A stretch of DNA of 5,949 nucleotides from a virus, in the IMG/VR virus record IMGVR_UViG_3300045988_009401; one strand, given 5' to 3'. Shown one piece after another: positions 4,752-5,949 of this stretch; positions within the stretch are counted from its first letter, which is position 1; every line of letters starts with the position of its first letter. A program made the translations under genes and the position numbers. The notes under the pieces were generated by a model. The model ran no database searches, was not told the origin of the DNA, and worked only from the letters and a program-made list of their open reading frames with translations.

Positions 4752-4970
4752 TCAATTCCTTTTTACTACAGCTACGTCTTCTAAGAATTTTTTTTCTACC
4801 TTGTACAGTCCATCTTCGTCTAGCTCATTTCCTAACTCGAATGCGTATTTTCTGCAGATGATTTTATCACTCTTCCTGTATAGCTTTTCGTAGTTGTACT
4901 TTTTTCCCATCATGTATCCGAAAAAATCGAGTTCTATATAATTTTGTTCGCGCACGTAGACTTTTTTCAT
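4752..4970 (-). CDS. Hypothetical protein, 72 aa, the first gene downstream of the promoter.
   Basis: ATG at 4970..4968 with GGAAGG SD 8 nt upstream, lying 33 nt downstream of the predicted -10. The stop is TGA at 4754..4752, 6 nt before the peptidase ATG. The protein is Lys/Tyr/Glu-rich with no transmembrane segment and no recognised motif. Confidence 0.5.
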   Translation of the reverse strand: MKKVYVREQNYIELDFFGYMMGKKYNYEKLYRKSDKIICRKYAFELGNELDEDGLYKVEKKFLEDVAVVKRN

Positions 4971-5002
4971 GGTGTTTACCTTCCTTTCTTTTCTGTGACT
5001 TA

Positions 5003-5031
5003 ATTATATCACATGTCAATACCTTTTTCAA
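5003..5031 (-). promoter_or_regulatory. Sigma70-type promoter on the minus strand that drives the gene cassette.
   Basis: On the minus strand the -35 is TTGAAA (5031..5026). A 17-nt spacer ending in TGA supplies the TGn of an extended -10. The -10 is a perfect TATAAT (5008..5003). The predicted start lies near 4996, and the first ATG is at 4970 behind a GGAAGG SD. Confidence 0.55.
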
Positions 5032-5076
5032 TCTTTTCGTCTCTTTGTAATAATTTGTAACCTTTCCTAGGACAGG

Positions 5077-5160
5077 AGCGCCGTTAGACTCCCGCCCTCA
5101 GGCGCTCATTTTGATAAGACCGGCAAGGCCGGTCAGACTGTCGGCGCGCTCCGTCAGACT
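5077..5160. repeat. GC-rich cluster of inverted and direct repeats upstream of the promoter, operator-like.
   Basis: An inverted repeat gagcgcc (5077..5083) / ggcgctc (5101..5107) has a 17-bp spacer. A second inverted repeat gaccggc-aag-gccggtc spans 5118..5134. Direct repeats GTCAGACT occur at 5132..5139 and 5153..5160, 21 bp apart, and a related GTTAGACT at 5083..5090. Confidence 0.6.
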
Positions 5161-5196
5161 TTGTCGTCTCCGCTCACCCTACTTTATTTGCCGTTC

Positions 5197-5352
5197 TTTC
5201 AACAGTTTCCACCGACTTTTCAACATTTCAACATTGTTAAACTTTATCACAACAGAGTGTTTCAACATTTCAACAAGTTTTCAACAAATCTTTCAACGTT
5301 TGTTTTTACCTTTTTCTAACGTTTTAACGTTCAAATTTATCTGTTTTCAACT
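5197..5352. repeat. Iteron-like array of about 9 TTTCAAC(A/G) octamers.
   Basis: TTTCAACA occurs at 5197, 5218 and 5226 (a tandem pair), at 5260 and 5268 (a tandem pair), and at 5279. TTTCAACG occurs at 5291, degenerate TTTTAACG and TTCAAA at 5322-5336, and TTTCAACT at 5345. The pattern is not CRISPR-like: the units are 8 bp and there are no spacers. Confidence 0.7.
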
Positions 5353-5397
5353 TTTCCACGTACTCTACTACTACGGCTACAACAAGTTATATAATAT

Positions 5398-5443
5398 TAC
5401 GCGTGCGCGTGTGCGCGCGTCTACGCGTGCGCGTGTGCGCGCG
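5398..5443. repeat. Tandem direct repeat, 2 x 21 nt, of perfectly alternating purine-pyrimidine CG/TG sequence (Z-DNA-prone) separated by tct.
   Basis: acgcgtgcgcgtgtgcgcgcg appears at 5399..5419 and again at 5423..5443. Each copy alternates Pu-Py strictly over 21-22 nt. The AT-rich ttatataatatt lies immediately 5' at 5387..5398. Confidence 0.8.
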
Positions 5444-5481
5444 AATAAAGCCCAGTACCTTACTTGATAGGTACTGGGCTT
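5443..5481 (-). terminator. 13-bp hairpin 11 nt after the VP4 stop. It is a candidate terminator and/or an origin hairpin.
   Basis: aagcccagtacct (5448..5460) and aggtactgggctt (5469..5481) form a perfect stem with an 8-nt loop, tacttgat. On the minus-strand RNA the stem is followed by UAUUCG, which gives a weak U-run, UUUAUU. The loop together with the adjacent base reads ACTTGATA on the + strand. Confidence 0.4.
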
Positions 5482-5492
5482 GGTGACACCGA

Positions 5493-5949
5493 TTAGAGTA
5501 TACCGCTTTTTTTCGTTTGTTTTTTGGTAACGCGTTCTTTTGCTTCTAATTGTGTTTTGTAATCTTGTCCTTCCAACTGCAGTCTTTTCTGCTCTATGGC
5601 TTTTCTCTGTCTGTTTTGCTTGATCCTCCACAGCCTTTCCGGGTTTTCTTTTTCCATCATCTTTTCATAGTATCGCGGTATTTGCGCCTTTTTGCCATTA
5701 GTGCATTGAATGTAGCCTTGTCTCCATATTTCTTCTTTGTGCTCTTGATAGTAAAGATCACCCAGTCCCGGCTTAAGTGACATACACGCGAACGGTTTTT
5801 GTTGACCTAGATCATAATATGCATTTGCTTTCTTTCCGTCAATTTCATACATTTTTTTTGTAACATACCCTGCAACATATCTATATGTTTCAGGTGTTGC
5901 TTGTGCGATCTGAATTTGACCGTTTCCCCATAGCTTTTCTAGCCATTCA
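5493..5949 (-). CDS. VP4: Replication initiator VP4, C-terminal part. Positions 5851..5949 duplicate 1..99, so this is the same gene as feature 1..569 read through the circular junction. The stop codon TAA is at 5495..5493.
   Basis: The 119-aa ORF 5493..5852 of the track extends in frame, with no stop, through the 99-bp terminal redundancy. It contains KPFACMSLKPGLG, typical of Microviridae Rep C-termini. The ATG at 5852 that the track used as a start is an internal Met. Confidence 0.88.
   Translation of the reverse strand, partial: EWLEKLWGNGQIQIAQATPETYRYVAGYVTKKMYEIDGKKANAYYDLGQQKPFACMSLKPGLGDLYYQEHKEEIWRQGYIQCTNGKKAQIPRYYEKMMEKENPERLWRIKQNRQRKAIEQKRLQLEGQDYKTQLEAKERVTKKQTKKSGIL
5851..5949. 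repeat. 99-bp terminal redundancy, an exact copy of 1..99. It marks the circular genome closure.
   Basis: I compared the two ends base by base: 5851..5949 is identical to 1..99. Confidence 0.97.

Follow-up and report, generated by a model that had tools for sequence, protein, structure and literature searches.

The window, the 5949-nt stretch of DNA analysed here at its full length, carries an exact terminal redundancy of 99 nt (positions 1-99 = 5851-5949) and is therefore a complete circular genome of 5850 nt, identified from its sequence as that of a gokushovirus. Its long open reading frames all lie on the minus strand and encode the standard gokushovirus protein set, and its relatives in GenBank are gut Gokushovirinae of pig, human and monkey. 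Microviridae package the coding-sense strand, so the minus strand of the window is taken to be the virion strand. The sole long non-coding region (4971-5492) houses an alternating purine–pyrimidine element, and the genes and features of the genome are arranged as follows.

Minus strand: major capsid protein VP1 (PF02305, E 8e-135)
Minus strand: Chlamydia-phage-type scaffold protein, VP5 and M15 peptidase
5031-5003, minus strand: best sigma-70-like promoter candidate of the intergenic region (TTGAAA, 17-nt spacer, TATAAT, upstream TG; 11/12 matches)
5197-5351, plus strand: iteron-like array of eight TTTCAAC on one strand (8 observed, 1.2 expected)
5361-5397, plus strand: conserved AT-rich flank, tactCTACTACTACggCTACAACAAGTTATATAATAT, which abuts the tract in most relatives
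5398-5443: whole element, 46 nt of alternating purine–pyrimidine CG/TG with one break, at C5421
5398-5419: first copy (arm 1), TACGCGTGCGCGTGTGCGCGCG
5420-5421: centre, TC, which with the first T of the second copy reads TCT
5422-5443: second copy (arm 2), TACGCGTGCGCGTGTGCGCGCG, identical to the first
5448-5481, minus strand: perfect 13-bp hairpin with an 8-nt loop, AAGCCCAGTACCT / AGGTACTGGGCTT, directly behind the VP4 stop
5493-5949, minus strand: 3' part of VP4/Rep (PF23343 REP_ORF2-G2P, E 5e-18), with its stop at 5493; the gene runs across the circular junction into 1-~585

An earlier note on this DNA had described two exact copies of a strictly alternating unit in AT-rich, non-coding surroundings, between an AT-rich block and a Rep-proximal hairpin, and in these respects its account holds: a repeat search (Tandem Repeats Finder) returned TACGCGTGCGCGTGTGCGCGCG twice, at 100% identity (period 24, 1.9 copies, score 92), the GC content of 5250-5399 is 0.28, and the element is situated between the TTTCAAC-repeat block (5197-5351) and the 13-bp hairpin (5448-5481) behind the VP4/Rep stop. 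Two details required adjustment: the 21-mer begins at 5399, a start at 5398 fitting with the preceding T counted in, and the unit is GC-rich as claimed, but at 81% (17/21 G+C) rather than above 85%. The alternating runs within the element, of 23 nt (5398-5420) and 22 nt (5422-5443), share one phase, such that only C5421 is out of alternation over 46 nt; the element holds 14 CG steps. Elsewhere in the genome, alternation extends over 11 nt at most, and in 2000 first-order Markov simulations the longest run always stayed below 22 nt (maximum 21, mean 13). MluI, BssHII and HhaI sites are contained within the tract, and the proposal that such sites are avoided elsewhere in the genome was not borne out, since outside the tract CGCG, GCGC, ACGCGT and GCGCGC occur near their expected numbers (CGCG 16, with 17.5 expected; GCGC 26, with 20.7; CpG 303, with 290). 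A protein-coding repeat was likewise rejected: core lengths in relatives range over 37-53 nt (with one of 68 nt) and fall into every residue class modulo 3, indels in the centre amounting to 0-9 nt, and because these length differences are not multiples of 3 the block is non-coding. A covariance-model scan of the window tract (E up to 1) gave no match in Rfam 15, no terminator-like site was detected on either strand within 4900-5600, and no promoter or terminator signal coincides with the tract itself. No earlier description of the tract in Microviridae was found in the searchable literature.

Beyond the tract, the plus strand continues with AATAAAG and the minus strand with TAATATT. The hairpin at 5448-5481, followed on the minus strand by TTTATT, is kept in relatives by compensatory changes, transversions included, as in the stem variants GCCCAG/CTGGGC, GGCCAG/CTGGCC, GCCAAG/CTTGGC and GTCCAG/CTGGAC. 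Different extra hairpin modules have been inserted at the right edge of the tract in relatives, marking this edge as an indel hotspot. To the left, the flank is conserved as CTACTACTAC...CAACAAGTTATATAATAT, with CAACAAGTTA no more than 40 nt from the tract in 62 of 71 relatives, and 5361-5397 is among the best conserved non-coding stretches of the lineage. Flank and tract together form TAATATTAC (5392-5400) in the window, the geminivirus/circovirus nonanucleotide; it is located on the non-packaged strand and is unconserved in relatives. A phiX174-like Rep nick site (TAACTTG/AACTTG) in the flank was considered and dismissed, as it is unconserved in other gokushoviruses and strand-flipped in relatives with an inverted block. 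The TTTCAAC block, ~200 nt in length, stands in the opposite orientation to the genes in L132, L243/MG945388 and L244/KX513864, and thus appears to work in either orientation; a reading of its TTTCAAC/TTTTCCAC repeats (TTTTCCACA in relatives) as DnaA boxes was rejected (20 matches, 13.5 expected, not significant). Elsewhere in the intergenic region, a GC-rich island at 5119-5160 includes a small hairpin (GACCGGCAAGGCCGGTC) as well as two imperfect direct repeats of 19 nt (5121-5139 and 5142-5160) that end in GTCAGACT. The promoter candidate at 5031-5003 is positioned just upstream of the first small ORF (4970-4752), ~370 bp from the alternating tract.

Conservation was assessed in 92 relatives, comprising 18 GenBank genomes and 74 IMG/VR genomes with enough sequence, the latter found via VP4 and sharing 80-94% amino-acid identity with the window in this protein. 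The element is present at the homologous position in 90 of the 92, with two adjacent alternating CG-rich tracts in 88 (72 IMG/VR, 16 GenBank) and one continuous alternating tract of 44-45 nt in two GenBank genomes. A single copy of the unit in the same context is found in one IMG/VR relative (L084), from which it follows that copy number varies in nature (1 or 2), and one odd 8.8-kb contig (L141) has no tract; nor do more distant gokushoviruses (VP4 30-39% identical, phiMH2K among them). The tract accompanies the TTTCAAC intergenic module in either orientation, and in one genome is located upstream of VP4.

Counting the window, 91 genomes yield 66 distinct core sequences, in which 2730 of 2901 steps alternate, compared with 2804 of 5518 (51%) in the left flanks. 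The arms measure ~20 nt each (about 18-24 nt) across relatives and are separated by a short T/C-rich break of 1-7 nt on the plus strand, of which there are 27 types, A/G-rich on the coding strand (TAGA, TAAA, GATAG, GAAAC, GAAGC and others); the phase of alternation between the two arms varies. Within the window-like subclade, 11 of the 46 tract columns are variable, none with transversions, and in the flanks transversions are seen in 23 of 37 and 17 of 29 variable columns. Several variants in this subclade (GCGCATGTG, GTGCACGTG and GTGCACGCG) appear identically in both copies, indicating homogenisation by slippage. On the sequences compared, what is conserved is the alternation, the length and the short T-rich centre, and not the exact sequence; with alternation and length kept in ~90 relatives in this manner, the locus is probably a structural DNA element, forming Z-DNA in its double-stranded form and a hairpin in its single-stranded form.

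Z-DNA propensity was calculated for the 5850-bp circle using a SIBZ-type partition function with published dinucleotide, junction and supercoiling energies (PMC3024258) and up to two runs, a calculation that leaves out competition from strand melting and cruciform extrusion. The tract was the sole site with P>0.05 from sigma -0.035 to -0.055, with a predicted B-to-Z onset near -0.035 and P ~0.9 by -0.045, the flip being predicted as one run of 44-46 bp; every other site in the genome remained at P <=0.26 even at sigma -0.07. A 46-bp flip would take away ~9 superhelical turns (delta sigma ~0.016), or ~27% at sigma -0.06. By rough estimate, cruciform extrusion and the Z flip would be similarly costly, but the cruciform would relax only ~4.4 turns, so Z should win in duplex DNA. 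The onset sigma is uninformative as a conserved quantity, because in a circle of 5.85 kb it is hardly changed by shortening the tract, with -0.0355 predicted for a 14-bp (CG)7 tract; Z-forming sites of up to 14 bp have been reported in pBR322, phiX174 and the gokushovirus phiMH2K (PMC3024258). Both in its sequence, which exceeds the ~12-14 bp of alternating CG and TG/CA steps asked of such DNA, and in its predicted transition, the window tract is a candidate Z-DNA-forming sequence. The Z-DNA propensity proposed in the earlier note is thereby supported, this being by far the most Z-prone site of the genome in the SIBZ-type calculation; absence or lack of conservation in close relatives, which that note had held would count against the idea, is the opposite of what was found, the property being kept where the sequence is not, and its suggestion of a hotspot for recombination or deletion fits the slippage-like dynamics seen in the one-copy relative and in variants identical in both copies.

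The exact 21-mer was also found in 34 IMG/VR contigs and 23 GTDB bacterial genomes, whereas two permuted control 21-mers gave one IMG/VR match each; by these controls, the abundance of the real 21-mer is due only to its being the most frequent variant in the prophages. Most matches belong to a large proteobacterial prophage family with a D5_N/DUF5906/Toprim primase-helicase, comprising L005/L158 and ~600 IMG/VR relatives (e.g. L158:3040-3180) and the GTDB loci L036, L038, L042, L043 and L053. An alternating tract of at least 14 nt is present in 77 of 80 prophage loci, in 40 variants; it is single, 21, 23 or 25 bp in length, and located ~50-60 bp downstream of the primase-helicase gene, within a dyad in the order CTGACGCAGCTGACGCAG - CGTAACTCC - alternating tract - CTCATGGA..GTTTCGA - CAGCTGCGTCAG. 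The outer inverted repeats of this dyad co-vary between subfamilies, and its repeats include TGACGCAG; the tracts themselves have no self-complementarity beyond alternation (z ~0). In its organisation the dyad resembles an origin or operator whose centre is Z-prone; the prophage tract had no Rfam match, and no description of the dyad was found in the searchable literature. The commonest prophage variant is the window unit TACGCGTGCGCGTGTGCGCGCG, and another variant, TACGCGTGCGCGCGTGCGCGCG, is also shared with a microvirus relative. As the flanks are unrelated, this identity is attributed to a small sequence space and similar constraints rather than to homology; homology or horizontal transfer of the exact 21-mer was rejected on the same grounds, both lineages drifting among many alternating variants.

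The remaining scattered matches (Streptomyces, Verrucomicrobia and others) occupy varied intergenic contexts, often between short inverted repeats. In unrelated genomes, the 21-mer is also embedded within longer alternating tracts (L047:5830-5970, L049:290-360, L050:4700-4760, L015:6540-6660), flanked by direct repeats in L047 (CTACTGAGATAAAnTATATCTTGTTA twice) and by perfect short inverted repeats in L049 and L050. There are hints here that alternating tracts beside repeats recur more widely. L047, a Clostridia MAG contig, was considered as an integrated relative on account of its 21-mer and rejected, as it has no similarity to the window.

The most likely reading of the tract, put forward tentatively, is that it may act as a supercoil-driven Z-DNA switch or sink. 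In the negatively supercoiled replicative form, it would constitute the one predicted B-to-Z site of the 5850-bp circle, with a flip that would begin near a superhelical density of -0.035 and be essentially complete by -0.045. The tract is placed where the single transcription unit ends (at the hairpin after VP4) and where the AT-rich repeats and main promoter region begin, and it is this position at the border between the two that suggests a torsional sink or switch, which could set the stress passed to the adjoining AT-rich control DNA. Several observations favour such a role: alternation is what stays constant among the 66 sequences in 91 genomes; the tract varies without transversions, whereas the adjacent ordinary hairpin has compensated ones; no other site in the genome rivals it as a predicted B-to-Z site; and the parallel tract of unrelated dsDNA prophages is without self-complementarity beyond its alternation. 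On the packaged strand, ~22% of arm positions are C.A mismatches and the fold is no better than that of alternation-preserving shuffles, and T outnumbers A in the arms (ratio 2.3) much as it does genome-wide (1.9), as a function at the level of the duplex predicts. Z-forming tracts are deletion hotspots in bacteria, according to work cited in PMC13174585, so that this tract has persisted implies selection. Established here are the sequence property, its conservation as a property rather than a sequence, and the thermodynamic prediction; that the Z form is taken up in the cell, and that selection maintains it, we infer. Three features are not predicted by a pure Z role: the break conserved at the centre, the complementarity of the arms in excess of shuffles, and the loop-like character of the centre, A/G-rich on the packaged strand. 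The phase of alternation between the arms is not conserved. The onset is, moreover, barely length-dependent in so small a circle, and the conservation of length must therefore rest, by assumption, on the amount of supercoiling absorbed, while dinucleotide slippage could restore alternation without selection for Z-DNA.

The main rival of the Z-DNA switch, doubtful yet by no means negligible, is a function in the single-stranded genome: the two arms and the 13-bp hairpin would form a GC-rich hairpin cluster in the packaged ssDNA, uncoatable by single-strand binding protein, that marks the start of the complementary strand by host primase, RNA polymerase or primosome, as at the complementary-strand origins of G4, St-1, alpha3 and phiX174, with alternating CG merely the easiest self-complementary sequence for slippage growth. 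Folds of 5385-5495 are much more stable than those of dinucleotide shuffles on either strand (-35.4/-35.7 kcal/mol, z ~-7; -35.4 kcal/mol and z -7.2 on the minus strand), and the arms are approximately equal (~20 nt each) around a short centre. Folding of the arms was compared with arms-only shuffles keeping alternation and composition, and the comparison repeated with the AT ends trimmed. Arm complementarity exceeds that of these alternation-preserving shuffles, the trimmed arms having more Watson-Crick pairs (982 vs 889) and fewer true mismatches (14 vs 58), in 61 of 64 cores; the element is on this evidence a genuine quasi-palindrome, not mentioned in the earlier note, to which phylogenetic non-independence and template-switch 'correction' could contribute. 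The additional stability, however, belongs to the non-packaged plus strand, where each T opposes a G (mean z -1.39, negative in 61 of 66 cores), the packaged minus strand being no stabler than the shuffles (mean z -0.19) with the same positions as C.A mismatches, a product of tolerated transitions that counts against the hairpin reading. No compensated transversion is seen in ~2900 nt of arms, although the adjacent hairpin has them; strict alternation is unneeded for a hairpin, and a like tract exists in dsDNA prophages without any hairpin signal. More in keeping with complementary-strand priming, all centre types but one are rich in A/G on the packaged strand, CGNAG occurs on that strand in 25 of 66 cores and on the other in 1 of 66, and GCGNAGC or GCGNNAGC mini-hairpin motifs are found on the packaged strand in 13 of 66. 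In G4, St-1 and alpha3, motifs of the GCGNAGC/GCGNNAGC type lie at the sites where primase starts, and they exclude SSB (PMC13037366); intergenic hairpins of microviruses are in general suspected of serving as complementary-strand origins (PMC9865509). The canonical motif is absent from the window, which has only CGTAG, a point against this reading, and a correlation between arm lengths, as a test of the hairpin, was not significant without one outlier. A rolling-circle origin stem-loop is not supported: no Rep nick motif was found at the element, whose centre is variable, and on the packaged strand neither the loop nor the DNA beside the stem has a conserved one. The Z-DNA switch and the single-strand hairpin are not mutually exclusive.

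The ~20-25 bp unit, present in two unrelated phage families and adjoined in both by iteron-like repeats, could alternatively be a duplex site, ~22 bp of alternating CG/TG, whose sequence or shape is recognised by a protein of the host or the phage, the two copies being two adjacent sites for a topoisomerase such as gyrase, a nucleoid protein or a replication initiator. This is improbable: the sharing of preferred variants by both families (TACGCGTGCGCGTGTGCGCGCG and TACGCGTGCGCGCGTGCGCGCG) and the excess of matches to the real 21-mer over the permuted controls (34 vs 1 each in IMG/VR) are compatible with such a site, yet shared variants are expected when only a few C/T choices vary, nothing except alternation is invariant among the 66 and the 40 variants, and the phage proteins, a standard gokushovirus set, offer no candidate. 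The two copies of the tract evolve in concert, a one-copy variant exists, changes are restricted to transitions and prophage tract length shifts in steps of 2, all of which would also be seen in a neutral or selfish (CG)n microsatellite that is expanded, contracted and homogenised by slippage, decays by transitions and is functionless for the phage. Such a microsatellite is nonetheless quite improbable at the same position with ~20-nt arms in 90 of 92 relatives, to ~80% VP4 identity and across rearranged flanks, all the more so in compact small ssDNA phage genomes and for a tract of the deletion-prone Z-forming kind, and the element goes along with its intergenic module even when this is inverted or relocated. 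The G.U-tolerant pairing of the plus strand, nearly throughout as G-C or G.T (z -1.39, negative in 61 of 66 cores), together with a TATAAT hexamer just upstream (5390-5395), would suit an RNA element, either a hairpin in a plus-direction transcript antisense to the genes or a terminator or attenuator; this we consider very improbable indeed, as the genes all lie on the opposite strand, the plus strand has no predicted sigma-70-like promoter upstream of the tract, no terminator-like site was found on either strand, no U-run lies behind the hairpin in either direction, and no Rfam family matched.

To our knowledge, the function of Z-DNA in bacteria and their viruses is an old open question, for which the evidence comes nearly all from engineered inserts. 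The present tract is long, natural and Z-prone, and is kept for a physical property across ~90 small phage genomes, with a parallel in hundreds of unrelated prophages. That one or two Z-prone tracts of ~22 bp beside or between initiator-type repeats might represent an unrecognised phage replication-control module, a torsional switch for origin or promoter firing that exists in parallel in gokushoviruses and prophages, is a speculative and rather unlikely generalisation; if true, it would supply bacterial examples of functional Z-DNA that are natural and under evolutionary constraint. Should the hairpin reading hold instead, the element marks the complementary-strand origin of gut gokushoviruses. 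MluI, BssHII and HhaI sites are classical reporters of Z formation, and because the tract contains all three and a 5.85-kb phage is synthesisable, the Z-DNA switch and the hairpin should be separable by a few designed variants.

Among known systems, the tract resembles the Z-forming (CG)n/(TG)n tracts of plasmids and SIBZ sites in its strict alternation, mainly of CG and TG/CA steps, in its predicted supercoil-driven B-to-Z flip at moderate negative superhelicity, and in its location upstream of a promoter region in a small circle. It differs from the Z sites of pBR322, phiX174 and phiMH2K (<=14 bp) as a natural bipartite tract of 46 bp with a T-rich centre, and from plasmid and SIBZ sites in its conservation by property in ~90 phage genomes, the Z form being in this case predicted. 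The complementary-strand origins of G4, St-1 and alpha3 are primase-dependent hairpins with GCGAAAGC or GCGTTAGC mini-hairpins, and that of phiX174 is a primosome assembly hairpin. With these Microviridae origins the element shares a stable intergenic hairpin cluster in an ssDNA phage and a loop-like centre that is rich in purines on the packaged strand, and exact copies of GCGAAGC, GCGTAGC or GCGATAGC are present in some relatives; it has no sequence similarity to them, however, and the arms in the window are strictly alternating, with ~22% C.A, no compensatory transversion and no canonical motif. In CRESS-DNA viruses and pT181-type plasmids, Rep nicks a conserved loop in a stem-loop origin, whereas phiX-type Rep proteins nick a non-hairpin site. 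The element resembles the stem-loop origins as a GC-rich inverted repeat beside the Rep gene of a small circular ssDNA replicon, but its loop of 1-7 nt is variable and without a conserved nick motif. A further likeness is in the centre of the prophage dyad, a CG/TG tract of ~21-25 bp whose alternation and length, but not sequence, are conserved, with an identical commonest variant, and which likewise adjoins iteron-like repeats and a replication gene; the prophages, dsDNA phages of 40-50 kb and 62-71% GC, nevertheless carry a single tract in place of the window's two, held between co-varying inverted repeats (CTGACGCAGCTGACGCAG ... CAGCTGCGTCAG) and, unlike the window's, lacking a dyad symmetry of its own.
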